Assembly: GCA_017615655.1 (NCBI GenBank) | Contig: JAFZZS010000002.1 | Span: forward strand, 195,114 to 259,113 | Source: Alphaproteobacteria bacterium | GTDB taxonomy: Bacteria; Pseudomonadota; Alphaproteobacteria; Rs-D84 | Direction: 5' to 3' | Length of the DNA stretch: 64,000 bases | Shown here: piece after piece, positions 2,044-38,966 of the stretch | Layout: every line of letters starts with the position of its first letter | Numbering within the stretch: the stretch's first letter is position 1 | Notes under the pieces: model-generated | The model's input: only the letters and a program-made list of their open reading frames with translations | What the model was told of the DNA's origin: nothing | Database searches by the model: none | Position numbers and translations under genes: made by a program

Positions 2044-3768
2044 ATGATGAAAAAAATTGTTGCCTTCATTTTTGCCTTGTTTGTGCCAGTTGCGTTGTTT
2101 GCGGCGCCGACGATTGATGTATTGGAAGATGCAGACGAAAGTTTATATTCACAAATTTTTATGTTGCAAGATTCAGAGAAGTTTTCTGTAGCGCAAAAGT
2201 TGGAACATCAGGTTTCTGATCCCATTTTAATGAATGAGGTTTTATATCAACGTTATTTTTCTAAGACTTATCATACTAAGGGAACCGAAGTTCAAGATTG
2301 GATGAATAAGTATAATGATATGCCTGGCGCGGCACGTATGGAAAAATTGGCTAAATTAAAGAAAGTAACGGTAAAATCGGCGCGTGTGCCAAGTATGTTG
2401 ACTGGTGGTGTGTCTATTGAAACGGCACAATCTGAAACATGGACAGCAAAACAGTATTCTGGATCAACAGATAAAAATATTACTAAATTTAAAAAGGCCA
2501 TTCGCGGTGGTAGTACGAAAACCGCACGCAATATTTTAGAAGATAAATCTTTTAAGCGTAAATTAACAGAATCTGACTATGGACGTTTGGCGGGGCGTTT
2601 ATCATATGTATATTATACTAATGGTGAATATGAATTGGCAAAAAAGTGGGGTTTTATTGCGTCTGATGCAGAGTCTGAATACGGTCTTTGGACAATGGGT
2701 TTAATTTATTTCAAAGAGCAGAAATACAAAGAAAGCGAAAAATATTTTAGTAAAATTTTGCAATTGAAGCAGATAAATAATGCACGTAAAACCGAGGCCG
2801 CTTTTTGGGCAGGGCGTGCTGCGGATATGCGAGGTGAACGTTCCAAAGCGCGTGATTATTGGCAGATTGCCGCAACCCATCCGATGGCTTTCTATGGTGC
2901 TTTGGCGGCAACTATGATGGGAAATGTTCCAGAATATGAATTTTTTGAACAAGAATTTACTTATGAAGATATCGAGGAATTGCGCCGTGACAAATATGGC
3001 AAGATGGCGTTGGCCTTGTTGCAAGTGAATCGTCGTGAACGTGCCGAAGCGTACCTAAAATATATGATAACATCCAAGGTTTCTGACAGAAATTTACATG
3101 CGATAAATGCTATTGCAACTGCATATGGGTTACCACGTGTCGCAATTCAGGCATCGGGTGTTATTCGCGATAGAGGAATTTTGGAAATTGATGACGATGT
3201 TATTTATACGGCGCAGTATCCATTGCCTGATTGGGAACCGATGGGTGGTTGGTCGATTGATAGGGCATTGCTGTTGGCAATCACAAAACAAGAAAGTGGT
3301 TTTAGAACAAATGTCACATCAAATGCAGGCGCAAATGGGTTGATGCAGATTATGCCCAGTACCGCGAAACGTGTTGCACGTGCCAACAAAGTTAATATGT
3401 CAGATATTGATATGTCGAATCCAGAGCATAACATGTTTTTGGGACAACAATATATTGTAGATTTGCTTATGCATCCGAATATAAATAATAACATTATTAA
3501 GATGTTGATAGCTTATAATGCGGGTATGGGGTCATTGGTAAAATTTGAAAAGTCTTTTGATACAAAAGATCCGTTGTTGTACATTGAAAGTTTTCCGGCA
3601 TACGAAACACGTGGATATATAAAGCGTGTGATGGCGAATTTATGGTTATATCGGGCGCGCCTGGGACAGCCATTAACCACATTGAAAGTTTTGGCTGATT
3701 CTGAATGGCCACTTTACAACAGCGAAGATGAATACGTGCGTGCCGAAGAGATTCCGTATTCTATTTAA
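2044..3768 (+). CDS. slt: Soluble lytic murein transglycosylase (Slt70-like), secreted
   Basis: Signal peptide and a superhelical N-terminal region. C-terminal SLT catalytic motif ITKQESGF...AGANGLMQIMPSTA. Confidence 0.85.
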   Translation: MMKKIVAFIFALFVPVALFAAPTIDVLEDADESLYSQIFMLQDSEKFSVAQKLEHQVSDPILMNEVLYQRYFSKTYHTKGTEVQDWMNKYNDMPGAARMEKLAKLKKVTVKSARVPSMLTGGVSIETAQSETWTAKQYSGSTDKNITKFKKAIRGGSTKTARNILEDKSFKRKLTESDYGRLAGRLSYVYYTNGEYELAKKWGFIASDAESEYGLWTMGLIYFKEQKYKESEKYFSKILQLKQINNARKTEAAFWAGRAADMRGERSKARDYWQIAATHPMAFYGALAATMMGNVPEYEFFEQEFTYEDIEELRRDKYGKMALALLQVNRRERAEAYLKYMITSKVSDRNLHAINAIATAYGLPRVAIQASGVIRDRGILEIDDDVIYTAQYPLPDWEPMGGWSIDRALLLAITKQESGFRTNVTSNAGANGLMQIMPSTAKRVARANKVNMSDIDMSNPEHNMFLGQQYIVDLLMHPNINNNIIKMLIAYNAGMGSLVKFEKSFDTKDPLLYIESFPAYETRGYIKRVMANLWLYRARLGQPLTTLKVLADSEWPLYNSEDEYVRAEEIPYSI

Positions 3769-3777
3769 TGGAGAATT

Positions 3778-4395
3778 ATGATTACTGTTGCGGATTTTTC
3801 CATTGAAAATGAAACGTGTGCAAAATTTGTTGCTGGTGTTGACGAAGCAGGGCGAGGACCACTGTGTGGACCAGTTGTTGCGGCTGCGGTGATTTTTCCT
3901 AATCGTGATATAGATATTCCAGTAATAATAAGAGATTCGAAAAAAATGTCACCACGCCAACGTGCGGTTGCATGCGATTGGATAAAAAAGAATACAATTT
4001 GGGCTACTGGTTCATGCAGTCCACAGGAGATAGATAATTTAAATATACTTTGGGCGTCTATGTGTGCGATGGAACGTGCAGTAGAAAAATTAGCCCAGTA
4101 TCCAGACTTGTGTTTGATTGATGGAAATCGTGTACCATCAGGGCTGCGTGGTCAAGCGGTGGTAAAAGGTGATGCAAAATCACTTTCTATTGCGGCGGCA
4201 TCCATTATTGCCAAAGAAACACGTGATAAAATTATGCATGATTTAGCAAAACAATTTCCGCAGTACGCATGGGATAAAAATTCTGGATATCCGACCACAG
4301 AACATTTGCAGGCAATTGAAAAATATGGTATAACACAATGGCATAGAAAAACATTTGGGCCGGTCAAAGAAAGGATAAAAAATGAAACTGCGTGA
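3778..4395 (+). CDS. rnhB: Ribonuclease HII
   Basis: GVDEAGRGPL...catalytic DE motif, typical of RNase HII; 205 aa. Confidence 0.9.
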   Translation: MITVADFSIENETCAKFVAGVDEAGRGPLCGPVVAAAVIFPNRDIDIPVIIRDSKKMSPRQRAVACDWIKKNTIWATGSCSPQEIDNLNILWASMCAMERAVEKLAQYPDLCLIDGNRVPSGLRGQAVVKGDAKSLSIAAASIIAKETRDKIMHDLAKQFPQYAWDKNSGYPTTEHLQAIEKYGITQWHRKTFGPVKERIKNETA

Positions 4396-5554
4396 TTTAA
4401 GTGGCTTGAATTTACGTGGCAAATACGTATTGCTGCGTGATGATTTTAATGTTCAGATTTTAGATGGCAAGATTACCGAAGTATTCCGTATTGAACGCAG
4501 CATGCCGACCATAGATTTTCTTCATACGGCCGGCGCACGCGTCGCAATTGTATCACACCTGGGGCGACCAAAAGGTGTACGTGATATGAAATATTCACTG
4601 CGTCCAATTGCGGATTATATGAAATTGCCGCTAATTGATGATTGCTTGTCGCGTGAATTTTTGGCAAACATGAATGATGGTGATGTGGTATTACTAGAAA
4701 ACGTCCGTTTTTATGCCGGCGAAGAGGCCAATGATCCGGAATTTTCGCGTATGTTGGCGAATGGTTTTGATTTGTTTGTAAATGATGCGTTTGCGGTTTC
4801 GCATCGTGCACACGCTAGTACCGTCGGGGTGACAAAGTTTTTGCCGTCTTATGCCGGGATGTTGTTGGAAAGCGAGATTGATAATATAACACGTGTTATG
4901 GGAAATCCAAAACATCCGGTACTGTCCATTGTTGCCGGGTCCAAGGTTTCAACAAAAATTGGTGTGTTGCGTGCGTTGGTCCGCCTGTCTGATACACTGA
5001 TTGTTGGTGGGGCATTAGGGACAACATTTAATTATGCACTGGGTGCGTCGGTTGGAAATTCGCTTTATGAACCAGATCAAAAAGAAAACGCATTAGAAAT
5101 TATAAAATATGCCACGGAAAATAATTGCAGATTGTTGGTGCCGTTGGACAAAGGGGTGGGACCAGAATTTAAACCGGATGCTAGGCGTACAGATAAAGAT
5201 ATAAATAATATCGCCCATGATGATGTTATTATTGATGGCGGTCCAAAAACCGCGGCGCGTGATGTTGATGAAATAGACCGGGCGGCAACAGTTATATGGA
5301 ATGGAACAGTTGGTATGGCAGAATGGATGCCAACATGGTCACATGGTTCATTTGCAATCGCGCGTGCCATTGCCCAGAATACTCGTGCAGGAAAATTACA
5401 CAGCATTGTTGGGGGTGGCGATACGGTCGCTGCACTGGATGCATGTGGTGTAATGAATGATATAACATATGTTTCAACAGGTGGTGGCGCCTTTCTTGAA
5501 TTTATTGAAGGTCGCCCACTGCCCGGAATAAAAGTTTTAGAAGACGGTGAGTAG
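4382..5554 (+). CDS. pgk: Phosphoglycerate kinase
   Basis: Full-length PGK similarity (N-terminal RxDFNVP-like motif; GGGA/GGGDT C-terminal motifs); 390 aa. Confidence 0.9.
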   Translation: MKLRDLSGLNLRGKYVLLRDDFNVQILDGKITEVFRIERSMPTIDFLHTAGARVAIVSHLGRPKGVRDMKYSLRPIADYMKLPLIDDCLSREFLANMNDGDVVLLENVRFYAGEEANDPEFSRMLANGFDLFVNDAFAVSHRAHASTVGVTKFLPSYAGMLLESEIDNITRVMGNPKHPVLSIVAGSKVSTKIGVLRALVRLSDTLIVGGALGTTFNYALGASVGNSLYEPDQKENALEIIKYATENNCRLLVPLDKGVGPEFKPDARRTDKDINNIAHDDVIIDGGPKTAARDVDEIDRAATVIWNGTVGMAEWMPTWSHGSFAIARAIAQNTRAGKLHSIVGGGDTVAALDACGVMNDITYVSTGGGAFLEFIEGRPLPGIKVLEDGE

Positions 5555-5574
5555 CTAACTTATAAGTATTATTT

Positions 5575-5603
5575 AACGGGGCGTTTGCCCCGTTTTAATT
5601 TTT
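5575..5603. terminator. Hairpin AACGGGGCG-TTT-GCCCCGTT plus T-rich tail between convergent pgk and ppiD
   Basis: Inverted repeat with a U-tract, read directly from the sequence. Confidence 0.5.
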
Positions 5604-5626
5604 ACACTTATTCCTAACAATAATCA

Positions 5627-7036
5627 CTATTTAACGAATCGGTTGTATGTTTTTTCGTTTATCTTGATTGGGTATTGACGTTCAAGATACGCATCGTAAT
5701 CAGCCTTGATATTTTGTGAAGATACTTTTGCAAGTTCATCTTTCAACGTGGCTAACTTTTTATCATCCACAGTCGGCACTTTTTCATCGCCAACATGCAT
5801 AACATAAAATGCGTCATCTGCATCAACAATGGTATTGTCACCGATATTCTTGTGAAATGCCTGGGTTAGCACTGGCATGGCGGCACCATCGGTTCGCGTG
5901 ACACTGATTGATTTTGCGCCATCCAATTTACCCGTTTTGTTTAAATCGACCAACAATTCATTGGCGCGTACGTATGCAGCTTTACGCTGTTCGGTGCGTG
6001 TCCAGTTGGTAACAATGTCCTTTTTCACAGAATCAAATTCCGCGTTATGTTCAGGTGTGATTTTATCAACACGGACGATTATAAAGCCCGCTTTGGTCTC
6101 GATAAGTTCACTTTCAGTATTTTCATCCATACTGAATATGCGCGCAATCATTGCATCATCAATATTTTTATCATCTGGTAATTTTGCCGATGATATATCT
6201 TTGTGTGTTTTATACTTTGCGCTATGTTTTTTCGCCGCATCCGCAAGGGTATCACCACCAATTATATCGTCTTCCAATTTTTGTGCGGACTTAAGACCTT
6301 TTTCGTACTCATCAGGTTTGTCCATTTCCACATCAATCATTACGTATGATATATCGCGTGTTTCTGCGATACGATGCGGATTTTTCGCATAGAAATCGTG
6401 CAATTCATCATCGGTTGGTGTTGGCACCTTGAAGTCTGAAAATTTTACAGTTGCCAAATCAACATTGCGTGATGCACCACGTGCATTATATGTTGCAAGC
6501 AGTGCAAATCGTGGTGTCTGTATTGCGGTTTCAATTGGGGTATTCACCATACTATTTAATGTTTTCATGCGGAGATCAGCAATAACATCCGATTCGGTTA
6601 ATCCAGAGTTCCGTAACACAACATCGTATGCCGCAGCCGAAAATTTTCCGTTTTCTTGGAATTGTGGAACGTTACGAATATCATTCGCAACATGGTGATC
6701 AGAAACCACATAGCCCAAATCACGTGCATGCTGTTCTGTTCTTTTCAACGAAGCGATATTTTTAATCACTTGGTCCTGGAAAACACTCATTGCCTTTGGA
6801 TCTGTATAAAGTGTGCGCTGCTCTTCACGCGATAACTTGGTCAACTCGTTTGATTTCATAGAGCTATATTGATTAATTGATACCTTTTCGCCACCAACAC
6901 GCATAAGTGTCGTGTCAGAAGATGTTAAACCAAACACCCATTCGGCAACACCCCACCCAACAAATGAAAAGATAAGAACACCCATTAAAATCTTTGCAAC
7001 AGGTTTATCTGCCGCATTACGTAAATATTCTAGCAT
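5627..7036 (-). CDS. ppiD: Periplasmic chaperone PpiD-like (SurA-N domain / degenerate parvulin PPIase), membrane anchored
   Basis: N-terminal TM anchor (ILMGVLIFSFVGWGV), SurA-N-like region and a C-terminal parvulin-like region. Start taken at the internal ATG (MLEYLRN) rather than the ORF-track start. Confidence 0.7.
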   Translation of the reverse strand: MLEYLRNAADKPVAKILMGVLIFSFVGWGVAEWVFGLTSSDTTLMRVGGEKVSINQYSSMKSNELTKLSREEQRTLYTDPKAMSVFQDQVIKNIASLKRTEQHARDLGYVVSDHHVANDIRNVPQFQENGKFSAAAYDVVLRNSGLTESDVIADLRMKTLNSMVNTPIETAIQTPRFALLATYNARGASRNVDLATVKFSDFKVPTPTDDELHDFYAKNPHRIAETRDISYVMIDVEMDKPDEYEKGLKSAQKLEDDIIGGDTLADAAKKHSAKYKTHKDISSAKLPDDKNIDDAMIARIFSMDENTESELIETKAGFIIVRVDKITPEHNAEFDSVKKDIVTNWTRTEQRKAAYVRANELLVDLNKTGKLDGAKSISVTRTDGAAMPVLTQAFHKNIGDNTIVDADDAFYVMHVGDEKVPTVDDKKLATLKDELAKVSSQNIKADYDAYLERQYPIKINEKTYNRFVK

Positions 7037-10374: not shown

Positions 10375-12738
10375 ATGAAAAAAGCAGTAGTTTCTATTGT
10401 TATGTGCGCATTTTGCGTAGGTTCTGCGTTGGCCGCGGTTCGCGGTTCTGACGTTGTTTTGCGTGTGCCAACGAATACCAGCAGAAGTTCGGAAAACGTT
10501 TCTTCGCGTGCGGCAACAACCAGTGTTGCGCCGCGTGCGGTTTTATCACGGTCTGGGGTCAATAATTTGCGGACCGTGTCTGGGCGTACAACAAAAACAA
10601 GGGTAATAAAATCTGCGCGAACGGCGAAGAATGTGACAAATCCGCGAGGCGCACTGATAAATGTTGATCAAACCAGTTCAGCACGTCCATCGCGCAGTGC
10701 TGTCAAGCAATCTAATGCACGCGCCGCGACAACAGACGTTAAGCCAAGTGTATTTGATGAAAATTATGAAGTGTGTCAAGTTGCGTACTTTACATGTATG
10801 GATCAATTTTGCGCATTACAGAATGAAACTTATCGCCGGTGTATTTGTTCATCAAAATTGGACAAGGTAAAATCGCGTGAGCGCGCACTATCACAAACAG
10901 CAGTTCAATTACAAGATTTCAAGGATTTGAATATAGATGCAATTCTTAAAACGCCTGCGGAAGTCAAAGCAATGTTGTCGGCAAGCGAAGGCGAACAAAA
11001 ACTGTCAATGATGCGCGATAATTCGAGTTCAATGAAGAAACTTAACGCAATAAGCGATGTTTTGGAAAATACGCGAAAAAATGCGGTTTCTACGGGGGGG
11101 CAATTAGACGTTGGGGGTGATATAAAACAAATATGGAATACTACAGATTTGATATCCGGGGCGAATATTGCAAATTTGACGGGTGAATCTTTGTATAACG
11201 CTGTACATTCGCAATGTGCCGAATTGGTCGCAGATCAATGTTCGTCACAAACCGCATTACAGATGGTTATGGCAGCGTACGGCATGTATATTGAAAATGA
11301 TTGTGCAACGTTATTATCTGCACTTGATAAACAGGCAAACAGTGCTAATACCGCAATTCGCCAAACAAATCGAGAGATGACAACTGCGCGTTTGGAAAAC
11401 TATAATGCGCATAATTCAGCGGCAATAAATGAATGTGTCGCGGGCGTACGTGAAAAATTAACTGAAGATACAGCATGTGGTGCGAATTATGTCCATTGTC
11501 TTGATTTGACGGGTCGTTACTTGAATAGGGTAACGGGCGAACCAATATATACAGCCAATTTTTATGAATTAAATGATCAGGTTTCTCTGGTTGGTGATGT
11601 GTTAACGAATACAACAAATGCAAAACTTGTTAATGAATTGAACCGCAAGCGTGAGATTGCGAAAAATGTGCTTGAAACATGTCGGGATATTGCAGATGAT
11701 GTGTGGAATGAATTCATGCGTCAGGCGATAACTGAAATTTACCAGGGTCAACAGTCCAGAATTCGCAAGGTCAAAAATGAATGCATGGATGTTGTTAATA
11801 AATGCTATGATGATACAGTAGGTCAATTGCGTGATTATAGTAATATTGAAGAACAAATGTTACTTGGGGATAGATTAGAGTTGTCCGAAGAAATGTGCAC
11901 AGAAAAAATGACAACCTGCAGCAATTTATATGGTGGGGGATCGGCAGGTTTACAATTGTTAATTGAAGAAATGCGCAGAATTACCGATCAAAAGATTTCG
12001 CAGAATTGCCTTGCGACATTAAAAGAATATTCCGAAAAATTATGTCGGGTTTCCGGATCTGATACTTTACATGCGTATCCGTATGGATGCCGCGTTTATA
12101 CGCCTGGAAATATATTCTATGCGACCAAACCTGAGTGTACGTACATAAACAATCCGACATACAGTGTGTCAAGTTTTGAACATGTTGCGCCTACTTCGCT
12201 GGGCAGTGTCAAGGTGTTAGGGACACAAACAGTTGTAAATGATCAAACCTTTTTGAATACTTATGCATGTTGGGATAACAGAATTTATTCAAGCTGTAAT
12301 GATGATTATTATTTGTGGGGTGGTAAATGTTATAAATGCCCAGAAGATTGGATATGTCAGGATGGTCAAATAAGGCCACAAAGTGTTGGGGGTGATACTT
12401 GTGGAAATTACATTGGTAGTCTATATCAGAAAATGGTTGTCTATGCATTGCAGTATTGTGTGCGTCCGTCCGAGGCTAATAATGCAATTCCAAACGAGGT
12501 TTTGGGGTACGTGAACATGACTATGGATTCTATACACGTGGATATGGCGTCTGCTTTGGCCCAGGAATGTGATAGACTTGGTGGGGAATGGGTAACAGAT
12601 TTCAAAAAGGTAGATGAAGATACTTGTGAACCCGAAGTCGACACCAAAAATTCAGATTTCTATAATCTGAGTAATGCGAATTTATGCTGGGGATTATGCA
12701 AAGAGAAAACGACAGACCAGGGCACAAACGGAGATTAA
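10375..12738 (+). CDS. Large secreted cysteine-rich protein, paralogue 1 (787 aa) of the CMDxFC family
   Basis: Signal peptide, then a Ser/Thr/Arg-rich low-complexity linker, then the conserved CQVAYFTCMDQFC...CICS core. More than 40 Cys. Colinear similarity to P2, P3 and P4 (for example CLDLTGRYLN and ETCRDIADDVWNEF blocks). Confidence 0.8.
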   Translation: MKKAVVSIVMCAFCVGSALAAVRGSDVVLRVPTNTSRSSENVSSRAATTSVAPRAVLSRSGVNNLRTVSGRTTKTRVIKSARTAKNVTNPRGALINVDQTSSARPSRSAVKQSNARAATTDVKPSVFDENYEVCQVAYFTCMDQFCALQNETYRRCICSSKLDKVKSRERALSQTAVQLQDFKDLNIDAILKTPAEVKAMLSASEGEQKLSMMRDNSSSMKKLNAISDVLENTRKNAVSTGGQLDVGGDIKQIWNTTDLISGANIANLTGESLYNAVHSQCAELVADQCSSQTALQMVMAAYGMYIENDCATLLSALDKQANSANTAIRQTNREMTTARLENYNAHNSAAINECVAGVREKLTEDTACGANYVHCLDLTGRYLNRVTGEPIYTANFYELNDQVSLVGDVLTNTTNAKLVNELNRKREIAKNVLETCRDIADDVWNEFMRQAITEIYQGQQSRIRKVKNECMDVVNKCYDDTVGQLRDYSNIEEQMLLGDRLELSEEMCTEKMTTCSNLYGGGSAGLQLLIEEMRRITDQKISQNCLATLKEYSEKLCRVSGSDTLHAYPYGCRVYTPGNIFYATKPECTYINNPTYSVSSFEHVAPTSLGSVKVLGTQTVVNDQTFLNTYACWDNRIYSSCNDDYYLWGGKCYKCPEDWICQDGQIRPQSVGGDTCGNYIGSLYQKMVVYALQYCVRPSEANNAIPNEVLGYVNMTMDSIHVDMASALAQECDRLGGEWVTDFKKVDEDTCEPEVDTKNSDFYNLSNANLCWGLCKEKTTDQGTNGD

Positions 12739-12742
12739 AAAA

Positions 12743-12768
12743 GGTTGCAATTTTTGCAACCTTTTTTA
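12743..12768. terminator. Bidirectional terminator GGTTGCAA-TTTT-TGCAACC flanked by A5/T6
   Basis: Perfect 8-bp stem between the convergent P1 gene and infA. Confidence 0.6.
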
Positions 12769-12781
12769 TAAAAACAGATAG

Positions 12782-13027
12782 TTATTCTTGGGTGTCACCT
12801 GGTGCACGTTTGCGTTCAACAAATGTTATGCGTCCCTTGGCTAAATCATAGGGGGTCATTTCAACGCGAACACGTTCGCCTACATTGACCCAAATGCGCG
12901 CTTTACGCATCTTGCCACAAACGGTTGCCAATATTTCGTGACCATTATCTAGTTTTACACGAAACATTGTGTTGGGTAATTTATCCTCGACTGTGCCGGT
13001 AAAAACAACAACATCATCTTTTGCCAT
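12782..13027 (-). CDS. infA: Translation initiation factor IF-1
   Basis: S1-like OB fold; GHEILA...GKMRK...VGDRV-type IF-1 signature; 81 aa. Confidence 0.9.
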
Positions 13028-13150
13028 ATTTATTCCTTGGGCTGTTTATTCATGAATAATATGTTGATTAGGCAAAAAAATCAAGAATTTTTTGTTGCCT
13101 GACCCCTATTGTTCTGATAAAATTATACAGAAGATGTAGGAAGGAAAAAT

Positions 13151-15298
13151 ATGAAAAAGATTCTTTTTGTCGGCCTGTTGGCTGTGATTCCATGTGTGGC
13201 ATTTACGGCGGAACGTGGTGGATCGCGCGTTGGTATTCGTGCATCTATGTCGTCGATGACGCCTGCGCCCAAGGTGCAAAGTATGCCAAAAGCAAAAGTG
13301 ACATCGAATGCGACATCAACGGTTAGCGCATCGGCACCTGTGGCTTCGCAACCCGAAGTTATTACCACAGAATCAGCAGAAGTTATCACAGAGGTTACAG
13401 AAACAAAATTAACCGTAGAAGAATGTCGTGATGCATACCGTGAATGCATGGATGAATTTTGTTTGCTGGATGAAGCTGAAGGTGGGCGCTGTTCATGTTC
13501 CGATAATATCAAGCAATCTAAGAGTTTGATTCAAACAATTCAATCTATTCAACAAGAGGCGGAATTGCTTTATACTGAAGGTGTTGAAAAAGAACGTCTT
13601 GGGGCAAAAGCAAAGTTTGTTAAATTTGGTGAAAGCGACAAGGCAAAAAAGTCTTCGCGTGTGTCGGGTATAGATTTGGTTGCGTGGATAAATGGCACCA
13701 CAAGTCAGAGTTTGGCGGCTGATGATGACATTGGTGATAATCTTTATGCTATGGCGGCGGATTCGTGTGAATATGTGTTAAGCAGTTGCGATGAAAAGCG
13801 CGCAGAAATGGAAGAAAAACTGTATCAGCGTGAAGTGGTCAAAGATTGCAAGGCTTTTGATGTATATTTGGCAGAACAGAAGAATGCCGCGGAATCGAAT
13901 AAAAGGACGGCACAGGCCGCGGTTCGTTCAGCAAAGTTAGATATGTTAGGAACCACAGAAAAATACAATCGTGGTGAGTGTTTAATTGCATATCGTGCGT
14001 GTATTGCAGACAAAGGTGGCTGTGGTGTTAATTTTGAAAACTGTTTAGATGCGGAATTGTTGGCGCGTCGTTCTAATGCTTGTGAAAACGTGCTTGATCA
14101 ATGTATGTCTGTGAAGACATATGTTTTGGAAGATTGGGAGGCGGAATCTAAAATGGTTCTTGCCGAAGCCGCAATTTACAGTGATAAAAATATGCGTTTA
14201 ACGTGTCTTGCACAAATTCAAGCATGTTTGGAAGACGGGTGCAGTACCTCTACGAATTCGGCGTGTTTGACAAACGTCCGGGTCGCTGCGGGTGTTTGCC
14301 CGATTATAACCGAATGTGAAGCTAAAATCCCGGGAATTCAAAGTGCAATTAATGACAAGTTGGCAGAATTGCGGACGCGTTTTTGTCAAAATGATGTTGA
14401 TAAATGTTTGCAAGATAAATGCGGTGTCAATTTTACTGCGCCAGAATGTGTTGGTAAGAAAACATCAGAAATTGTCGCGATGTGTCCTCAGGCTATGTTC
14501 GCGTCGTGTAAAAATGAAAAGTTTTTTGGTGTAATTGTTCAATCAACATTGTTGCAGATGGACTATCAAATGCTTGAAGGGTGTAAGAATTATTATGCCG
14601 ATGCATTGGGTAAGGTATGTGGAACAGATATGAATTGTTTGCCGGGCAGTACGGTGGTTGAGTCTTTAACAAAAACACCGGTCAGTGTTGGTGATGTTGA
14701 GGACGAAGTTCGTGCAGAAAGTAAGGCCGCGGTTAATGAATTCTTTAAACGTTTTGAAACCGAACAAACGGTTGCGGCATGTAAAAGTTCACAACAGCCT
14801 GTGGGATCTGGACGCAAGAGTTTAAAAGATGCAATGTTTACTTTCACCAAACAGGCGGCAGAAATTGCGGCTCAAAACCGTTATTTGACCGATTTGCGTT
14901 CAAAATTGGCGGAACTTTCGCGCAAGGACGATACGGCCAAGGCGGAACAAAATTGTTATGAACAATATAAAGTTGAAAAGAAGCCTGTAACCGATGATAG
15001 CGGATCTTATACGTATATTCGCAGCGTATCGTTTGAACCGTCATTGCGTAATTGTCATGTGTGTCGTATGCAACGTGTTTGCGAAGTGGGTGGCGAATCT
15101 AAAGCAACTTCCGCATTAAAAGCGGGTGCCGGTGGTTTGGCTGCGGGTGCGTCTGCAGGAACGATGATAAATGCAGGATGGGGAACCGCAATTGGTGCCG
15201 TTGTTGGTGGTGTCGGTGCCGGTGTACTGGGTGCGGTTTCGGGTGGCGAAAAAGAGTTCTGCCAAGAAATAGAATCTTGTGAAGATATAAATATGTAA
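13151..15298 (+). CDS. Large secreted cysteine-rich protein, paralogue 2 (715 aa) of the CMDxFC family
   Basis: Signal peptide, S/T/A/V-rich linker, then the EECRDAYRECMDEFC...CSCS core. A Gly/Ala-rich glycine-zipper-like tract (AGAGGLAAGASAG...GGVGAGVLGAVSGG) lies near the C-terminus, which ends ...CQEIESCEDINM. Confidence 0.8.
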   Translation: MKKILFVGLLAVIPCVAFTAERGGSRVGIRASMSSMTPAPKVQSMPKAKVTSNATSTVSASAPVASQPEVITTESAEVITEVTETKLTVEECRDAYRECMDEFCLLDEAEGGRCSCSDNIKQSKSLIQTIQSIQQEAELLYTEGVEKERLGAKAKFVKFGESDKAKKSSRVSGIDLVAWINGTTSQSLAADDDIGDNLYAMAADSCEYVLSSCDEKRAEMEEKLYQREVVKDCKAFDVYLAEQKNAAESNKRTAQAAVRSAKLDMLGTTEKYNRGECLIAYRACIADKGGCGVNFENCLDAELLARRSNACENVLDQCMSVKTYVLEDWEAESKMVLAEAAIYSDKNMRLTCLAQIQACLEDGCSTSTNSACLTNVRVAAGVCPIITECEAKIPGIQSAINDKLAELRTRFCQNDVDKCLQDKCGVNFTAPECVGKKTSEIVAMCPQAMFASCKNEKFFGVIVQSTLLQMDYQMLEGCKNYYADALGKVCGTDMNCLPGSTVVESLTKTPVSVGDVEDEVRAESKAAVNEFFKRFETEQTVAACKSSQQPVGSGRKSLKDAMFTFTKQAAEIAAQNRYLTDLRSKLAELSRKDDTAKAEQNCYEQYKVEKKPVTDDSGSYTYIRSVSFEPSLRNCHVCRMQRVCEVGGESKATSALKAGAGGLAAGASAGTMINAGWGTAIGAVVGGVGAGVLGAVSGGEKEFCQEIESCEDINM

Positions 15299-15308
15299 GG
15301 TTTTGATA

Positions 15309-17810
15309 ATGAAAAGAATCAAATATATTGCATTGATTACGGCTGTCGTTGCGCCATGTATCGCGTTGGCAGCAACAACCAAGAAACAGTCCGCAGTACA
15401 AAATGGAACTACTGTTCGTACTAAAGTTGCCGCCAAAGGTGTTTATTCTCAGGAATGTTACGATGAATACTACGGATGTATGGACCAGTTCTGTATTTCA
15501 GAAAATATCAATGGCGGTAGCTGCGCATGCAGTAACAAATCTATACAATACGAAGAAGAGTTAAAAGAGATAAATTCAATACTTGCAGAAGCAGATAGAA
15601 TCAAAACAGTAGAAGTTGAAAAGGTAAAACTTGGGGCAAACGCTGATATCGTTTTTAATGGTGAAAGAAAATATGACGAGAAGGGTAATGTTATAAGGGT
15701 ATCATCAAATTCTGATAGACCGAACAAAACTTCAAAACGTGAAGATTTGCTTAAGATGTTCGAAACAAATTTTGATGATGACGATGATGACGACGACGAT
15801 GTTATGAATAAAAGGGGCGCGGCGTTATTTAATGCGGCAAATGCGACATGTTCCAGTCAAGTTGATAGCTCTTGTGCAAAAGATTTAAAGATTTTAACCC
15901 AGATGTATCAGCGTCAAATTGAATCAGATTGTCAGGGGTTTGCAAATAGTATTGCACAACAAAAAGCCGCAGCGCAATCTGCAATGAATAGCGCGGAATC
16001 TGATGTTAGAACAGCATTAAAGGAAAGTTTTGATGCTGCGAACAAATACAACCAGGGCGAATGCATGGTTGAATTTAAAAAATGTATGACTGGTCCAGAT
16101 GCGTGTGGAACTGATTGGATAAATTGTGTTTCAACGATTGCGTCTGAGAATATGCAGAACAAGGCTGCAAAAAGTACGGCGGGAACAAAAACAAAGACAA
16201 CTGTTGCATATGACATAACACCGTCTGTTATGGAACGTTTGGAATCTAAACGAACTATTTGTGAACGCGTTCTGGATCAGTGTATGGCAGTACGTGATAC
16301 GGTTTGGACGGCATTTTTGCGAGAGGCGGCGCCAACACTTAAACTTGCGGAATTGCGCGCTGAATCAGATTTTCGTCAGTCTTGTTTAACAGAGATTACC
16401 AAGTGTATTCATACCGCGTGTAAAGATGATATTGCGGGCAAAGGTGTTGCAACAATGGATTCTTGTTTATCAAGGCCTGATATGGCACGTTCATTCTGCA
16501 AGGTTCAGATTGACCCTTGTGAACGCATGGAGCCATTAATTTGGGGATATGTTACAGACAAGTTAGCGGCGATGCGTGTCGATGCTTGTACCCAGGAAGT
16601 TAAAGATTGCTTTATGGATGATAATCGTTGTGGCAAAGACTTTATGAATTGTATAGGTATGGATTATGAATTTATACGAAATATATGTCCGTTGGATAAA
16701 TTGGTTGTTTGCAAGAAAAACAACAAGAATTTCAGTATGGCGGATATAGATTCTATGATTTCGGGACTGTATTTAAATATTGATAACAAGGCATTAGATA
16801 ATTGTCAAAAGATTGTCGAAGACAAAATGACCGAAGTTTGTGGTTCAACAACAGATTGTAATAAGTTTGCTGCTGATGACATAATGGGTACTAGCAGTTT
16901 ACGCAGCCAAAAAGATAAGAATATATATCGTATAACAGGGATGATATCGTTTGGTGTGTTACCAATTGCGACCTCGGGTGAAGATGTCGGCAAAATAGAT
17001 ATCACTGATTACATGTCAAAGGTGCGTGCAAATGCTGAAACGCAGGATGTGCCGAACAAGGATATGGTATTGGAAAATATCGAAACAGAATTAAAGAATG
17101 TTGCAAATAATATTAACCGTGTAATTGATTTAATTTCATCTGATACGAAGATACAATATTGTGTAACAGGGCGTAATCTTGCTCAAATTGTTGGGGAAAA
17201 AGATGCTCGTACAACCAAGGCACGTTTTCCAAATCTTTTGAATCAAATTAAAATTCAGATTGCAATGGCGGCGTTACGTAAAGCTCAGGATAATTATCAA
17301 GCCAAATATAATGAATATTTAGTTAAGGCGACAAAAGACGCGTCTGCGGATGTTGCGCAATATATGTGTCAGATGTTACCAGTTACAGGTGGTGCACCAG
17401 TTGGTGCGACAGGTGAAGAACAAACACAACTTGCCCCGCCGTATGCGATAAGTTACGAGGTTAGTACCGGATTAAATAACACATTGTTGTCGCAGGGGGG
17501 ACATGGGTCCTCTGCAACAGGAACAAGTGCAAAGGTTGATACTACTGCGGGTGCATCAAAGTTTGCGGGCGTTGTTGATGCGTTTACCGGGCTTGCTGGT
17601 CAAAAGGTAAAATCTGAAACCGGCAATGGAACGCGTGAAATGTGGTCTATATTTAATCGTGATACACGTATATGTCATTTCTGTACATCAACTGTGACAA
17701 AGAGCTGTTCAACTATTACAAAGAAGGGATTCCTTGGCATTGGATCCAAAGCCGAAGCGTCATGTACAGAATCTGATCCAGTTGAAAAGTGTGAAGATAT
17801 TGAAATGTAA
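15309..17810 (+). CDS. Large secreted cysteine-rich protein, paralogue 3 (about 833 aa) of the CMDxFC family
   Basis: Signal peptide, then the QECYDEYYGCMDQFC...CACS core. Poly-Asp run of 9 D followed by DV at 15773-15799. Colinear with P2. Ends ...EKCEDIEM. The ATG at 15309 is preferred over the TTG at 15303. Confidence 0.8.
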   Translation: MKRIKYIALITAVVAPCIALAATTKKQSAVQNGTTVRTKVAAKGVYSQECYDEYYGCMDQFCISENINGGSCACSNKSIQYEEELKEINSILAEADRIKTVEVEKVKLGANADIVFNGERKYDEKGNVIRVSSNSDRPNKTSKREDLLKMFETNFDDDDDDDDDVMNKRGAALFNAANATCSSQVDSSCAKDLKILTQMYQRQIESDCQGFANSIAQQKAAAQSAMNSAESDVRTALKESFDAANKYNQGECMVEFKKCMTGPDACGTDWINCVSTIASENMQNKAAKSTAGTKTKTTVAYDITPSVMERLESKRTICERVLDQCMAVRDTVWTAFLREAAPTLKLAELRAESDFRQSCLTEITKCIHTACKDDIAGKGVATMDSCLSRPDMARSFCKVQIDPCERMEPLIWGYVTDKLAAMRVDACTQEVKDCFMDDNRCGKDFMNCIGMDYEFIRNICPLDKLVVCKKNNKNFSMADIDSMISGLYLNIDNKALDNCQKIVEDKMTEVCGSTTDCNKFAADDIMGTSSLRSQKDKNIYRITGMISFGVLPIATSGEDVGKIDITDYMSKVRANAETQDVPNKDMVLENIETELKNVANNINRVIDLISSDTKIQYCVTGRNLAQIVGEKDARTTKARFPNLLNQIKIQIAMAALRKAQDNYQAKYNEYLVKATKDASADVAQYMCQMLPVTGGAPVGATGEEQTQLAPPYAISYEVSTGLNNTLLSQGGHGSSATGTSAKVDTTAGASKFAGVVDAFTGLAGQKVKSETGNGTREMWSIFNRDTRICHFCTSTVTKSCSTITKKGFLGIGSKAEASCTESDPVEKCEDIEM

Positions 17811-30365: not shown

Positions 30366-31481
30366 CTATTTATTTGTTAACTGTAACTCAATGCGCCGGT
30401 TCTTTTGCAGGCTGACTGCATCGGTTCCAAGTTCAATTGGGTGCAAATCACCAAAGCCACTGGGGACCAAGCGTCTTGCCGATACACCATCGCGAATCAA
30501 TTCGTTCATGACCGCGCGTGCGCGCAAAATTGATAACTGCATATTATCAGCATAGGCACGATTTCCTGGGACAACAGGCTTTTTGTCAGTATGCCCATCA
30601 ATGCGAATAATCCAATTTATATCGGTTGGGATTTTTTCCTCTAGTCCTTTGATTACATTTGATATAAGGCGAACCTGATTCTTTCCTTCGGTTGATAATT
30701 TGTATGATCCTGTTTGGAACAGAATATCACTGGGGACAATGAATCTGTCGCCATCGGCCTGAACCGATGATGTATTACCAAGTGCGATTTTTATTGCTCT
30801 ATAAAATTCCGATTGATATTCTTCCATGGCTTTTAATTCGGCAACTTTGTCCGCCAGGGCTTTGTTAAGACGCGTTGACATTTCAATATATCTAACTTCC
30901 TGTTCCTTGGCAGATTTTTCTGCGATGGAAAGCGCATAAGTTAATTTGTCCAGTTCTTCTTGGTATTCTGCATCATATTCTTCAAGCTTCTGGGCTTGTA
31001 GTCGCATGGTTTCTTGCAGTTCAGCCTGTTTCTTGGCCAGTCCATCAGCCAGTTCACGTTGCGCGTTTTGTGAGGCATTTAACTGAGCTACCAGGTTCAG
31101 CATTTGTTGCTTGGTTGCCTCGTCTTGGGCCTGAAGGTCATTTACTTTGTTTTCATATGCGGTAATTAAATCTATGATAGAAAGGTCTTTTGATTCTAAA
31201 TCAGTTTGTGCGGATTCCAAACGGGCACGTGCCTGAATCAACAGACGCATTGCTTCCTGTTCGTCTGCGGTCATTTGGCGGATTTTTTCGCTTTGTTCTG
31301 CATTAGTTTGCTGTAATTCAGCGATAGTTTTCATTCCAGTTCTTTTGTTAAAGACACTTGTGGTTGTCCATAAAAACACGAATACAATCAACAAAAATAT
31401 CAATATGATGACCAGGTTCGAAAACAAATCGACGAACGCCGGCCATGTGTTTGTTCTATCACGAAATCTAAAGTTAAACAT
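30366..31481 (-). CDS. MotB/OmpA-like stator subunit with a ~200-aa coiled coil
   Basis: N-terminal TM/plug region (WPAFVDLFSNLVIILIFLLIVF), a long heptad-rich coiled coil, and a C-terminal OmpA-like peptidoglycan-binding domain (RIDGHTD...ILRARAV...RRIEL). Start taken at ATG 31481. Confidence 0.75.
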   Translation of the reverse strand: MFNFRFRDRTNTWPAFVDLFSNLVIILIFLLIVFVFLWTTTSVFNKRTGMKTIAELQQTNAEQSEKIRQMTADEQEAMRLLIQARARLESAQTDLESKDLSIIDLITAYENKVNDLQAQDEATKQQMLNLVAQLNASQNAQRELADGLAKKQAELQETMRLQAQKLEEYDAEYQEELDKLTYALSIAEKSAKEQEVRYIEMSTRLNKALADKVAELKAMEEYQSEFYRAIKIALGNTSSVQADGDRFIVPSDILFQTGSYKLSTEGKNQVRLISNVIKGLEEKIPTDINWIIRIDGHTDKKPVVPGNRAYADNMQLSILRARAVMNELIRDGVSARRLVPSGFGDLHPIELGTDAVSLQKNRRIELQLTNK

Positions 31482-31513
31482 TGTTTTCCTCTCTCGTTTT
31501 CTTATGCAGACAC

Positions 31514-32293
31514 CTAATTTTCTTCTTCGCAAACAGTATGAACGGTGTCATCAATGCGTTTAATAGAATTGACTATTTTGTCTAAACTGGACTCGATTCT
31601 TGGCCACATTCCTATTTCTGGGTGAGCAACATTGGTGCGCTTGGATAGGAAGTCTTCTAGTTCACGTATAATAGATCCCTGGGCCATATTTAGTTGTAAT
31701 GATAAAAATCCGACAACCAAGCTGCCCCCAAGGCCAAGTAACGAACTTGTAAATGCGGTAGCCATTCCACCAAGCGGACGGGTTAAACCAGACTGCATGG
31801 TTTCAAGAACCGTTTCATCATTAAAGTTAAGATTTCCAATTAATTCAGCAAAGCCACCAACCGTCAAAATCAATCCCCAAAATGTTCCCAATAGCCCCAA
31901 GAATACCAATGTGTTAGTAATATATCGGACGGATTCTCTATCATCTTCGAATCTAACAAGAACCGCATCTAATACACTGCGTAGACCACTTTCGGTCAAT
32001 TGATTCGGACGCGTCCGTAACATTAATGCAACGGAACTTAAAATACGGGGTTTAGGCATGTAACGGCGGGACCCGCCCGTATACGCATTTATCCAGCGAT
32101 GTTCCGGCAAAAGAGCAAACATTTTGATAAAACAAAGGATTATGCCGAATAGCGTTGTTCCAATAATTATGCCGTTAAGGTAAATATTTGCGGTCGCAAT
32201 TTCAAAAAAGGTGCGATAAAAGAATACTATTACGCACAGAATTATTGCCGTAAAAAGCGCCATTCTATTAAGGTTTCCGTGAAAAGTGCTCAT
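31514..32293 (-). CDS. MotA/TolQ/ExbB-family proton-channel subunit (259 aa, 4 TM)
   Basis: Two N-terminal TM helices, a ~70-aa cytoplasmic loop, then the family signature TFWGLILTVGGF...GGMATAFTSSLLGLGGSLVVGF. Lies immediately upstream of the motB-like gene. Confidence 0.75.
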   Translation of the reverse strand: MSTFHGNLNRMALFTAIILCVIVFFYRTFFEIATANIYLNGIIIGTTLFGIILCFIKMFALLPEHRWINAYTGGSRRYMPKPRILSSVALMLRTRPNQLTESGLRSVLDAVLVRFEDDRESVRYITNTLVFLGLLGTFWGLILTVGGFAELIGNLNFNDETVLETMQSGLTRPLGGMATAFTSSLLGLGGSLVVGFLSLQLNMAQGSIIRELEDFLSKRTNVAHPEIGMWPRIESSLDKIVNSIKRIDDTVHTVCEEEN

Positions 32294-33780: not shown

Positions 33781-34869
33781 ATGGTTAAAGAAAAATGCCC
33801 GAAAGTTTCTGTATTGGTACCATGCTATAACTCTGAGCGTTATATTGACGAATGCATCACCAGCATTATAAATCAATCTTTAAAAGATATAGAAGTTATC
33901 TGTATAAATGACGGATCGACTGATAATACCCTGGATATAATCAAAAAATATGCCGATTTAGATAGTCGGGTTTTGGTTATTGATAAACCAAACGAAGGCT
34001 ATGGTAAGACCATGAATCGTGGTCTGAACATTGCAAGTGGCGAGTATATCGCGATTGTTGAGTGCGATGATTGGATTGAAAAAAATGCACTGGAATTACT
34101 TTATACAACCGCAAAACAAAATGATGCCGATATGGTAAAAGCGGATTTTGTTTTGTTTGATAATGATACTCGTGTTGAAACGCCATCAAGGTGTTTCGGG
34201 GTCAGCCCAAAAATGTATGGCAAGGTATTTTGCCCGATGACAGATAATTCGGATGTCGCATGGACCGGTCACCCAAGTATTTGGACATGTTTATATCGAA
34301 ATGATATGATTCAGAAATATAAAATACGTTTTGCAGAAACACCTGGTGCGTCGTTTCAGGATATGGGATTTAAACCTAAAACTTTTATAGCCGCACGTTC
34401 ATTTGTATACATACCAAATGTTATACTGCATTATCGCAAACACGCCAATAATTCCGATAAGACAAATAGCAAGATTTTTGAAGTTTGCGAAGTTCATAAT
34501 GATGCGGACAGATGGTTACAGCAAAGCGGGTTGGAATCAAAACGTGCGTGGGATATACTGAATGTCTCACGATTTTCCAATTATGTTTGGAATTTGCGTC
34601 GATTAAGTGGTGATGCCAAGGCGCAATTTACACAAAGATTTCAATCTGATTTTGACAAGATTTTATCCGCAGGAAAACTTAATAGGAATTTCTTCAACGA
34701 TAAATTATGGTTAAAAGTGTGTATAATGGTATATCCAAATAATCCTTGGTGGCGAATTTTGCGTACACTGACCACTTTAATTTGGCCGATATACCGCAAT
34801 AAAGTAGTGTTTGGACACAAAGTATATTACTTGTTCGGGGGGATTGTTTTGAGAAAGGTAAAAGTGTAA
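33781..34869 (+). CDS. Family 2 glycosyltransferase
   Basis: GT-A fold: VSVLVPCYNSERYIDECITSI...ICINDGSTDNT...VECDDW (DxD-like). Confidence 0.8.
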   Translation: MVKEKCPKVSVLVPCYNSERYIDECITSIINQSLKDIEVICINDGSTDNTLDIIKKYADLDSRVLVIDKPNEGYGKTMNRGLNIASGEYIAIVECDDWIEKNALELLYTTAKQNDADMVKADFVLFDNDTRVETPSRCFGVSPKMYGKVFCPMTDNSDVAWTGHPSIWTCLYRNDMIQKYKIRFAETPGASFQDMGFKPKTFIAARSFVYIPNVILHYRKHANNSDKTNSKIFEVCEVHNDADRWLQQSGLESKRAWDILNVSRFSNYVWNLRRLSGDAKAQFTQRFQSDFDKILSAGKLNRNFFNDKLWLKVCIMVYPNNPWWRILRTLTTLIWPIYRNKVVFGHKVYYLFGGIVLRKVKV

Positions 34870-34885
34870 AGGTTGGTATGATAAA

Positions 34886-35719
34886 ATGAACAAGAAAATC
34901 GCAGTTATTGGTGCCAGTGCTTATTTGGCCGAAAATATATCAAATATATCAAAAAATGTTTTGTTGTTTTCACGCGCAGATGATTGGGCTAAGTCTGGTA
35001 ATGCTGATGATTTTGATTGGGTTATAAATTTTTCTATTCAGCCAGAATTTCAGAAAAAAATTTTACCGGAATCTGAATTGATTGATGTTAATATCGCCAA
35101 GATAATTCAAGGCATGAAGACAAAATTCGTAATGATTTCGTCAAGAAAAGTGTATGGGACTTGTAAAACATTAAATATTTTCTATGAAACCGACGAGTGT
35201 CATCCAGCCGATTTTTATGCGAAAAACAAATTAGCAACCGAGCATAAAGTACTAGATTTATTGCCCGAACAATCACTGATTGTGCGTGTATCAAATATTA
35301 TTGATTTTCCATCTAGGCGTCCTGAACAACGTGTGTTTATGGGATGGATTAGGGATTCTATGCGCGAAAAAGGTGAATTGAATATCACTGAAAATCCAGA
35401 TGTAAAAAAAGATTTTATAACACGAGATTATTTTCAACGCGCATTGCGTGATTTAATGAACAAAGACGAATTGGGAATATTTAATGTCGGTGCCGGATTT
35501 GCGGTCAGTCTGCGTGAATTGTTACCTAGGATAGTTGGACGTGGTAACTGTGTGTTTAGTGGCAAGAACAAGGAACTAGCAGATCAATTTATATTAAATA
35601 CTGACAAATTGCATATGGTAATGAAAGCTTTTTCTGTGGACGAATTATATACAAAGTGTGATAATATTCGCAAGGTGATGTTTGATAATATGGGGGCGCA
35701 TGATAATGGCAAAAATTAA
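34886..35719 (+). CDS. NAD(P)-binding sugar-nucleotide epimerase/reductase-like protein (RmlD-like)
   Basis: N-terminal Rossmann motif (IAVIGASAYLA); SDR-like architecture; located inside the glycan locus. Confidence 0.5.
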   Translation: MNKKIAVIGASAYLAENISNISKNVLLFSRADDWAKSGNADDFDWVINFSIQPEFQKKILPESELIDVNIAKIIQGMKTKFVMISSRKVYGTCKTLNIFYETDECHPADFYAKNKLATEHKVLDLLPEQSLIVRVSNIIDFPSRRPEQRVFMGWIRDSMREKGELNITENPDVKKDFITRDYFQRALRDLMNKDELGIFNVGAGFAVSLRELLPRIVGRGNCVFSGKNKELADQFILNTDKLHMVMKAFSVDELYTKCDNIRKVMFDNMGAHDNGKN

Positions 35720-38949: not shown

Positions 38950-38966
38950 CTATGGGATAAAAAGCA

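Follow-up and report, generated by a model that had tools for sequence, protein, structure and literature searches.

Large secreted cysteine-rich paralogues conserved in the uncultured alphaproteobacterial order Rs-D84

We analysed 64,000 nucleotides (nt) from an Alphaproteobacteria bacterium of the lineage Rs-D84 (NCBI GenBank assembly GCA_017615655.1, contig JAFZZS010000002.1, positions 195,114 to 259,113 of the forward strand; hereafter the window, numbered from its first letter), which carries three large genes for secreted cysteine-rich proteins, named here P1, P2 and P3. Sequence comparison supports their assignment to an undescribed, large and conserved family, and it indicates that the three represent ancient, strongly constrained orthologue groups and not recent tandem duplicates. 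A fourth member, the P1-like Q3, lies at the end of the window. Our preferred reading, which we hold tentatively, is that these are Sec-exported, DsbA-oxidised, elongated helical proteins stapled by disulfides, which would form a hetero-oligomeric scaffold in the cell envelope with P2 as its membrane-anchored member.

The three open reading frames (ORFs) are on the plus strand exactly where the original prediction had placed them: P1 at 10375-12738 (787 amino acids, aa), P2 at 13151-15298 (715 aa) and P3 at 15303-17810 (835 aa from a TTG). They are 100% matches to the NCBI hypothetical proteins J5742_01110, J5742_01120 and J5742_01125, respectively, and the peptides quoted from them beforehand, KYNQGECMVEFKKCM and KYNRGECLIAYRACI, are found in the translations. 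The likely start of P3 is the ATG at 15309, which gives 833 aa, because the NCBI model has this length. That the three are paralogues is confirmed by BLASTP: P2 and P3 share 28% identity over 486 aa (E 1e-48), while P1 matches P3 at E 1e-19 and P2 at E 4e-10. Cysteine accounts for 4.2-5.2% of their residues, whereas in the remaining 47 window ORFs its share is 1.1%. Two words used of them at the outset need amendment. "Giant" overstates proteins of 715-835 aa, for which large is the better term. "Tandem array" needs qualifying, as the three plus-strand paralogues are not contiguous: a minus-strand infA gene and a terminator hairpin split P1 from P2. The infA gene (12782-13027, minus strand; initiation factor IF-1, 81 aa, PF01176 at E 3e-23; ORF cluster 3) is not a member of the family, and at least 39 related loci keep it in this place between the two genes. 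The hairpin, which belongs to neither strand in particular (12736-12768, between the convergent P1 and infA), is flanked by an A-run and a T-run and has a fold free energy of -17.2 kcal/mol (z -6.5, matched by 0 of 200 shuffles); it is, to judge by its sequence, a bidirectional intrinsic terminator. A consensus scan for promoters and terminators stayed at chance level and missed this hairpin because the stem runs into the A and T runs. Only 4 nt separate the P2 stop from the P3 start, and the obvious operon appears to consist of P2 and P3 only.

At the N-terminus of each protein are a hydrophobic signal sequence and a cleavage site of the small-x-small (AxA) type, and conservation of this site among orthologues confirms the signal peptides that had been claimed. 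We considered and rejected a lipoprotein reading: the signal-peptide cysteine is kept in merely 9-14% of species, compared with 99-100% for the mature cysteines of P2 (36 of 36, in 74 species) and of P3 (36 of 36, in 79 species). P1 has 29 conserved mature cysteines and two that are clade-specific. The linker behind the signal peptide was described as Ser/Thr-rich and of low complexity. The composition is as claimed (Ser and Thr make up 25-31% of the linkers and 13-15% of the protein bodies), but the P3 linker is short, conserved and not of low complexity. Near the N-terminus follows the family signature, whose CMDxFC core is real but whose spacing needs correction from x2 and x6-7 to x3 and x9, and thus reads C-x3-Y-x2-C-M-D-x-F-C-x9-C-x-C-S in all three proteins. 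Translations and family alignments place it at 10774-10851 in P1 (CQVAYFTCMDQFCALQNETYRRCICS) and at 15456-15533 in P3 (CYDEYYGCMDQFCISENINGGSCACS), while in P2 it lies at 13424-13501 (CRDAYRECMDEFCLLDEAEGGRCSCS) and is among the five most conserved 25-mers of the protein; all three positions are on the plus strand. A CMDxFC-like motif is present in 139 of the best 152 family representatives from the profile search given below.

The further cysteines in colinear positions that the original prediction had noticed extend across all paralogue groups: approximately 24 cysteine columns are colinear, and they are invariant among representatives sharing less than 50% identity. Consecutive cysteines lie seven residues apart (C-x6-C) ten times in P3, eight times in P2 and four times in P1, where random expectation is 1.2, 1.3 and 1.0, and therefore they would sit two helical turns apart on one face of a helix. 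Covariation of cysteine presence and absence was used to search for disulfide partners; all of its signal comes from one subfamily split, the loss as a block of Cys 261, 320, 373, 388 and 436 (P3 numbering) in the P1-like subfamily, and so carries no statistical weight. A 23-aa motif, C-x6-C-x6-CG-x-[DN]-[FWY]-x-N-C, occurs twice in P3, as CMVEFKKCMTGPDACGTDWINCV (aa 254-276; 16062-16130, plus strand) and CTQEVKDCFMDDNRCGKDFMNCI (aa 429-451; 16587-16655, plus strand), and hhalign of the two sub-alignments relates the copies with a probability of 79% (E 1.7e-5). A related motif, CG-x-[DNQE]-[FWYL]-x2-C, is found in 139 of the 152 representatives. Self-comparison finds just this one motif pair as an internal repeat, and a repeat-protein reading was rejected on that ground.

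AlphaFold2 models of P1 and P3, built with orthologue alignments and of moderate quality, provide a view of the architecture. The P1 model reaches a predicted local distance difference test score (pLDDT) of 72 and a predicted template modelling score (pTM) of 0.47, with the core and the C-terminal domain mostly at 85-95; the P3 model reaches a pLDDT of 65.5 and a pTM of 0.38. Aligned through their common cysteines, the two independent models share one architecture with a long-helix core. The CMDxFC motif is on a short helix, and very long helices follow, predicted at residues 292-362, 437-488 and 523-556 in P1 and at 189-246, 328-377 and 645-691 in P3; a predicted helix of 71 residues would be approximately 10 nm long. 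Disorder is predicted for residues 15-123 of P1 and for residues 113-165 of P3, an acidic stretch with an Asp run. The least conserved parts are the linkers (0.09-0.28) and residues 576-675 of P1 (0.05-0.33); the most conserved are the Cys-rich core and the SVSFEPSLRNCHVCRMQRVCEVGGE segment of P2.

Along its sequence P1 comprises a signal peptide (aa 1-20), a linker (21-125), the helical Cys core (126-590), a hypervariable region (576-675) and a C-terminal domain of mixed alpha/beta structure, confident in the model, that runs to aa 787. The model, the composition and the conservation profile agree on an Arg/Ser/Thr/Ala-rich, disordered linker (10435-10749, plus strand). It has an isoelectric point (pI) of 12.0, with 19 Lys+Arg against 4 Asp+Glu and 29% Ser+Thr, and a few of its Arg positions are near-invariant in 80 orthologues. 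Both P1 and Q3 present pI-12 tails of 104-142 residues on acidic bodies (pI 4.7-5.0), together with a Cys-rich C-terminal domain. P2 comprises a signal peptide, a 68-aa linker, the helical Cys core, a CHxC module, a glycine-zipper segment and a C-terminal tail ending in CQEIESCEDINM. The conserved module SVSFEPSLRNCHVCRMQRVCEVGGE (aa 625-649; 15023-15097, plus strand) has a conservation of 0.88 across 74 species and recurs at the C-terminus of P3 (CHFC...C). Next to it is the glycine-zipper-like hydrophobic segment ...AGAGGLAAGASAGTMINAGWGTAIGAVVGGVGAGVLGAVSGG (aa 650-699; 15098-15247, plus strand), a putative two-helix membrane hairpin with hydrophobic 19-mers at aa 679-681. P2 and P3 have a C-terminal CHxC...C...CEDIxM module in common, and the zipper of P2 is an insert of approximately 50 residues within it. 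P3 comprises a signal peptide, a conserved KKQSAxQNGTxVR peptide, the signature, the acidic disordered stretch, the helical Cys core and a beta-rich C-terminal region (aa 717-835; 17451-17807, plus strand). This last region was delimited by DSSP on the model and by alignments, contains five invariant cysteines (791, 794, 802, 821 and 830) and ends in CEDIEM, as P2 does.

A scan of one genome per GTDB species finds P3 relatives in 138 species, of which 80 make up our set of related loci. These 80 loci come from gut, rumen or termite metagenome-assembled genomes (MAGs) labelled Candidatus Enterousia, Alphaproteobacteria or 'Rickettsiales', so the Holosporales and Rickettsiales, proposed earlier as the place to search, were off the mark: the window and all 80 loci trace to MAGs of Candidatus Enterousia, order Rs-D84. 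This uncultured order is widespread in the guts of humans, livestock, birds and termites, and its genomes are small (0.75-1.0 Mb), with normal coding density and few pseudogenes (PMC12306168). The organisms are anaerobic and fermentative, with no tricarboxylic acid cycle, respiratory chain, flagella or standard transporters; MreB, RodA and MrdA are present, and a partner-dependent lifestyle has been proposed (PMC12306168). No paper in the literature library searched links Rs-D84 or Enterousia with cysteine-rich proteins. An exhaustive profile search of 1.84 billion representative proteins returns 1,041 clusters (50% identity) at E<=1e-3, not one of them annotated, and 558 at E<=1e-30. For 95 of the best 152 representatives P3 is the nearest paralogue, with a median identity of only 32%, and the family is therefore far more diverse than the four groups described here. 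The few representatives with a name, which come from Proteobacteria or Rickettsiales MAGs, are all called 'hypothetical protein'.

In 78 of 81 loci P2 and P3 are neighbours that run in one direction, and in 67 loci P1 is linked to them. The commonest order is cl1(-) P1(-) infA(-) / P2(+) P3(+), with P1 divergent from P2-P3 in most species; in the clade of the window (the window and related loci L001-L003) P1 is inverted relative to this arrangement. In 61 loci P1 is followed on its own strand by cl1 (at 6688-7392 in L001, for example), a gene for a secreted protein of approximately 237 aa that has 9-11 Cys. This protein has no Pfam match and nothing significant in the library scans. The window genome lacks the cl1-bearing segment of approximately 790 bp (absent at 12739-12781) and has lost the gene. 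Selection was assessed by the ratio of nonsynonymous to synonymous substitution rates (dN/dS, Nei-Gojobori) in pairs of loci with unsaturated dS of 0.2-0.6. The ratio is 0.04-0.08 for P2, 0.04-0.07 for P3, 0.10-0.20 for P1 and 0.05-0.13 for cl1, which compares with 0.02-0.07 for MscS, 0.02-0.03 for ClpX and 0.06-0.13 for ClpP; clpPX, infA and mscS are the housekeeping genes among which the trio is found. Constraint at housekeeping level and invariant cysteines rule out genes in decay. Such purifying selection also argues against the classical, rapidly evolving antigen of host interaction, at least where P2 and P3 are concerned.

The paralogue Q3 (62005-64000, minus strand) is cut by the window end, and its ORF at 62005-63978 matches P1 by BLASTP at E 1e-31. 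The full gene, at 3524-6334 of related locus L081, encodes 936 aa with a signal peptide, a pI-12 basic linker and the motif CRQIYYECMDEFC...CACS (CMDEFC). The second locus at 60341-64000 that the original prediction had joined to the trio thus does hold a further paralogue, but the other Cys-rich protein there, Q1, is without sequence similarity to P1-P3. Q1 (60341-61321, minus strand) is a secreted protein of 326 aa with 26 Cys (8%) and CxxC-containing stretches; BLASTP finds no similarity to P1-P3, and Pfam, PHROGs and PADLOC give no match. Q2 (61413-61922, minus strand) has 169 aa, a lipobox-like LANAC and no Pfam match. Both are directly downstream of Q3 on the same strand. Adjoining Q3 just past window position 64000 (L081:1692-3257) is a 522-aa protein of the Pom family (PF17251, 41 bits at a cutoff of 22.4). 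The family is that of the Protochlamydia outer membrane protein, which one would not expect in an alphaproteobacterium; the L081 protein has 4 Cys only. Elsewhere, in at least one related species, an extra P3-like copy (L076:100-2331, 30% identity to P3) is found approximately 8 kb upstream of a P1-P2-P3 cluster, and the number of paralogues differs between species. Other genes recur near the trio in the related loci: autotransporters with Chlam_PMP repeats and no Cys in 34 loci (for example L022:23-2986), a Cys-rich (4.1%) OmpA-domain protein of 715 aa in nine loci (for example L056:13831-15978), and, immediately downstream of P3 in 31 loci, an orthologue of the BOF/YgiW-type periplasmic protein with an oligonucleotide/oligosaccharide-binding fold (PF04076) that in the window is 12 kb from P3 (29933-30298, plus strand).

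That P1-P3 have no recognisable domain, as first noticed from the sequence, is borne out across Pfam, NCBIfam, PHROGs, PADLOC and the PDB, with one weak glycine-zipper echo in P2. No Pfam match is obtained for P1-P3 at E<=1, and scans of P1-P3, Q1, Q3 and cl1 against Pfam, NCBIfam, PHROGs and PADLOC return nothing significant. Searches of PDB sequences with single proteins and with the family profile give no match. When nine long members and 57 diverse members were scanned singly against Pfam, we obtained weak glycine-zipper matches only, plus a DnaA fusion or mis-call; no domain of secretion systems, enzymes or toxins is present in the 57. The glycine zipper of P2 appears to be the only element of the family with an echo in the databases, and the echo is weak. 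The segment in the window P2 has a sub-threshold NCBIfam match (YiaD_Gzip_OmpA, E 0.74) and no Pfam match at E<=1. A few P2-type relatives have weak Pfam matches to Gly-zipper_Omp (E 1.7e-4), Gly-zipper_YMGG (E 0.009), Rick_17kDa_Anti (E 0.024) and C19orf12, and NCBI names some P2 orthologues 'glycine zipper family protein'. Its Gly-rich segment also gives the sole PHROGs match of P1-P3, to phrog_18476 (unknown function, E 1.3e-4); with this one match, and none in PADLOC, membership in phage or anti-phage defence was rejected. Foldseek with the P3 model returns gasdermin, perforin and membrane attack complex (MAC) pore matches at noise level (E 2.6-5.5, probability <=0.33). The fold is probably new, a statement that applies to predicted models set against solved structures. 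Neither P1-P3 nor the 57 members match an autotransporter barrel or YadA_anchor, while the true autotransporters in the neighbourhood are readily detected. In P3 the C-terminal strands include Cys as well as charged residues, and the protein finishes with CEDIEM and so without a terminal aromatic residue. Type V secretion was rejected, as neither a C-terminal outer-membrane barrel nor a YadA-type anchor is found.

The closest functional analogy, as distinct from homology, is the chlamydial Cys-rich outer-membrane complex. OmcB and OmcA resemble P1-P3 in their signal peptide, their 4-6% Cys, their proposed role in a disulfide-based envelope and their occurrence in a small-genome, host- or partner-associated organism, and OmcB has a basic N-terminal region ahead of its Cys-rich body. 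There is a likeness of context as well, with Chlamydia-type families nearby (Pom next to Q3, Chlam_PMP autotransporters in relatives). However, P1-P3 and the 57 members have no match to the chlamydial Cys-rich outer membrane proteins or to DUF11-type repeats, PDB searches with P1-P3 and the family profile give none, and the beta-sandwich repeats of OmcB and OmcA differ from the all-alpha rods predicted in the P1 and P3 models. Differently from Chlamydia, too, the Rs-D84 lineage keeps peptidoglycan and rod-shape genes (PMC12306168). A detergent-insoluble outer-membrane complex cross-linked by intermolecular disulfides, as in Chlamydia, is disfavoured, since the Pom-like and autotransporter neighbours of the Rs-D84 loci are not Cys-rich.

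Three further systems invite comparison. The Hcp proteins of Helicobacter are secreted helical-hairpin proteins in which paired cysteines bridge adjacent helices, and the regular Cys spacing of P1-P3 is comparable; but P1-P3 exceed them three- to fourfold in size and have very long helices, and neither they nor the 57 members have a Sel1 or TPR-type match or a 36-residue repeat. The Gly/Ala-rich segment of P2 resembles the hairpin of the glycine-zipper lipoproteins with two transmembrane segments (the Rickettsia 17-kDa antigen, SlyB/Pcp; PF05433, PF13488, PF13441), but the likeness covers approximately 50 of 715 residues, P2 is without a lipobox (its sole signal-peptide Cys is present in 14% of species), and P1 and P3 are without the segment. 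The tripartite toxins of the ClyA superfamily (Hbl, Nhe, AhlABC, SmhABC) likewise consist of three divergent secreted helical paralogues, one with a hydrophobic element. Unlike P1-P3, these alpha-pore-forming toxins are not known to be Cys-rich. P1 moreover has a separate transcription unit, the three proteins are approximately twice the size of the toxins and match them neither in sequence nor in fold, and they evolve like housekeeping genes and sit among them.

The scaffold that we tentatively favour starts from observations that are directly supported, namely paralogy, export signals, the Cys skeleton, the predicted helical architecture, synteny, purifying selection and the lack of a match to any known homologue or solved fold. 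What we infer from them is that disulfides form, where the proteins reside, that P2 and P3 pair, and that the whole serves as a scaffold. P1, P2, P3 and Q3 would be exported by Sec. Each would possess an all-alpha core of approximately 470 residues with 24-29 invariant Cys, many of them at i/i+7 on helices, and periplasmic oxidation would most likely convert these to intramolecular disulfides. A candidate oxidant is encoded in the window, a membrane-anchored DsbA-like thiol:disulfide oxidoreductase (43439-44254, minus strand; PF01323 at E 1.1e-18, PF13462 at E 1.3e-17). An orthologue in a related locus (cluster cl10) that matches this ORF by tblastn has the motif CPYC, and the enzyme may be linked to the oxidation of P1-P3. 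The disulfides would staple the long helices (up to approximately 70 residues, approximately 10 nm) into rigid rods. The glycine-zipper hairpin would anchor P2 in a membrane, most plausibly at the periplasmic face of the outer membrane, and P3, translationally coupled to P2, would probably be its partner in a heteromer; the coupling and the common C-terminal CHxC...CEDIxM module make such a heteromer probable. P1 and Q3, with cl1 in most species, would be accessory members whose pI-12 tails bind anionic envelope polymers and which carry a separate Cys-rich head. The resulting assembly of rods, a fixed hetero-oligomer, would belong to the core biology of Rs-D84 (Enterousia). Housekeeping constraint and neighbours, the absence of a translocation domain and a cost of approximately 1% of the genome argue for a core structural role over an enzyme, a toxin or a variable adhesin, and four genes of 2.1-2.8 kb kept in genomes of 0.75-1.0 Mb argue that the function is important. 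Of the envelope and host-interaction roles offered by the original prediction, it is the envelope that we infer.

Several points weigh against a scaffold of this kind. The conserved mature cysteines of P1 are odd in number (29). The lineage has no respiratory chain (PMC12306168), which makes the re-oxidation of DsbA a difficulty, and neither DsbB nor VKOR is seen in the 64-kb window. The zipper match of the window P2 itself is below threshold. The hypervariable residues 576-675 of P1 (conservation 0.05-0.33) and its variable C-terminal extensions would suit an exposed protein. Finally, MreB, RodA and MrdA are retained (PMC12306168), and an extra scaffold is not obviously needed.

The main rival to the scaffold is a surface apparatus for attachment to a partner cell or the host mucosa, in which the P1 and Q3 tails would bind anionic glycans and the disulfides would provide resistance to gut proteases. 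We consider it possible, if on the doubtful side. The partner-dependent lifestyle proposed for Rs-D84 (PMC12306168) fits it, as do the disordered pI-12 tails and the surface proteins nearby (of the Pom family beside Q3, and with Chlam_PMP repeats in relatives), and it would account for the higher dN/dS of P1 (0.10-0.20), the hypervariable stretch and the variable C-terminal extensions. However, no route through the outer membrane was found, be it an autotransporter barrel, a signal for secretion of type I, II or IX, or a lipobox; and P2 and P3, which evolve as slowly as housekeeping genes, show neither repeats nor variable cassettes. Heparan sulfate binding by the basic N-terminal region of OmcB in Chlamydia is an analogy for what the tails of P1 and Q3 may do.

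A multi-component translocon or pore that inserts into the membrane of a target or of the cell itself, by analogy with the tripartite alpha-pore-forming toxins, would import nutrients from a partner cell. It would make sense of three helical paralogues conserved together, of the hydrophobic glycine-zipper segment in P2 and of a lineage without standard uptake systems (PMC12306168), and long beta-hairpins are predicted at the C-terminus of P3, with very weak Foldseek matches to pore proteins. These matches are at noise level, though, and neither sequence nor fold gives a meaningful score against ClyA, Hbl or any other pore-former. On inspection of the sequence, the strands predicted for P3 are not of the amphipathic membrane type. 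Pore-formers also refold extensively, which dense stapling by disulfides would impede; we regard a pore as improbable. It is very unlikely, in our estimate, that the cysteines serve as functional thiols, which would bind metal, carry sulfur or buffer an anaerobe against redox or oxygen stress during transmission. Their number and invariance are in keeping with such a use, one member weakly matches the putative redox-active Pfam family C_GCAxxG_C_C (E 0.0033), and an anaerobic, fermentative lineage has no respiratory chain to drive DsbB (PMC12306168). Against it, neither a CxxC-type nor a Cys/His cluster signature is seen, the cysteines follow a heptad-like spacing along helices, conservation of His in P3 is low (0.41), and the proteins are exported by a cell that encodes a DsbA-like oxidase. 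The cysteines of the P1-like subfamily were moreover lost as a block, as expected of bonded partners, although this is a single event of no statistical weight. Non-functional, decaying or mis-called genes are almost certainly not the explanation. The genes are unannotated and the linked cl1 is lost in the window genome, but the ORFs are intact and syntenic in approximately 80 species, the family fills 1,041 clusters, and the decay that the original prediction had kept in reserve is refuted by dN/dS of 0.04-0.2 and by Cys invariant in approximately 75 species.

Going one step further, we suggest with more doubt that the family is the material of an unseen envelope or contact organelle. This would be a hetero-oligomer of rods with a new, disulfide-stapled helical fold, confined to the partner-dependent Rs-D84 bacteria with reduced genomes in animal guts and needed for their partner attachment or nutrient exchange. 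Were this true, it would be the alphaproteobacterial equivalent of the contact structures, themselves poorly understood, of the Patescibacteria. An apparatus for contact or uptake would also account for the partner dependence of this common gut lineage. If the family is a structural periplasmic protein only, the outcome is a useful annotation. Four conserved genes (2.1-2.8 kb), at approximately 1% of the DNA in a streamlined genome and under housekeeping-level constraint, make P1-P3 and Q3 prime candidates for the lineage-specific machinery behind the Rs-D84 lifestyle. Conserved hypothetical families are common in uncultured lineages, which tempers the surprise, but protein size, four paralogues, an invariant Cys skeleton and constraint in a genome below 1 Mb keep this one worth pursuing. 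A new family entry would be justified, and the fold is probably new too. For localisation, enrichment and structural work the family offers a handle, as a candidate abundant, disulfide-stabilised and probably envelope-located antigen.

The window also holds features outside the family. A MotB-like protein (30366-31532, minus strand) combines a membrane segment at its N-terminus with a long coiled coil and an OmpA domain (PF00691), and its gene overlaps that of a 259-aa multi-pass membrane protein without a Pfam match (31514-32293, minus strand). The two resemble a stator-like pair, in a lineage reported to be without flagella. Three ORFs of 284-439 aa (42385-43239, minus strand; 47133-48452 and 48591-49625, plus strand) have no Pfam match and are not Cys-rich. 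Between approximately 34000 and 40000, G+C falls to 0.36-0.37 from approximately 0.41, and plus-strand ORFs at 33781-41364 have glycosyltransferase-like N-terminal sequences; the low-G+C block could be a horizontally acquired cluster for surface polysaccharide.

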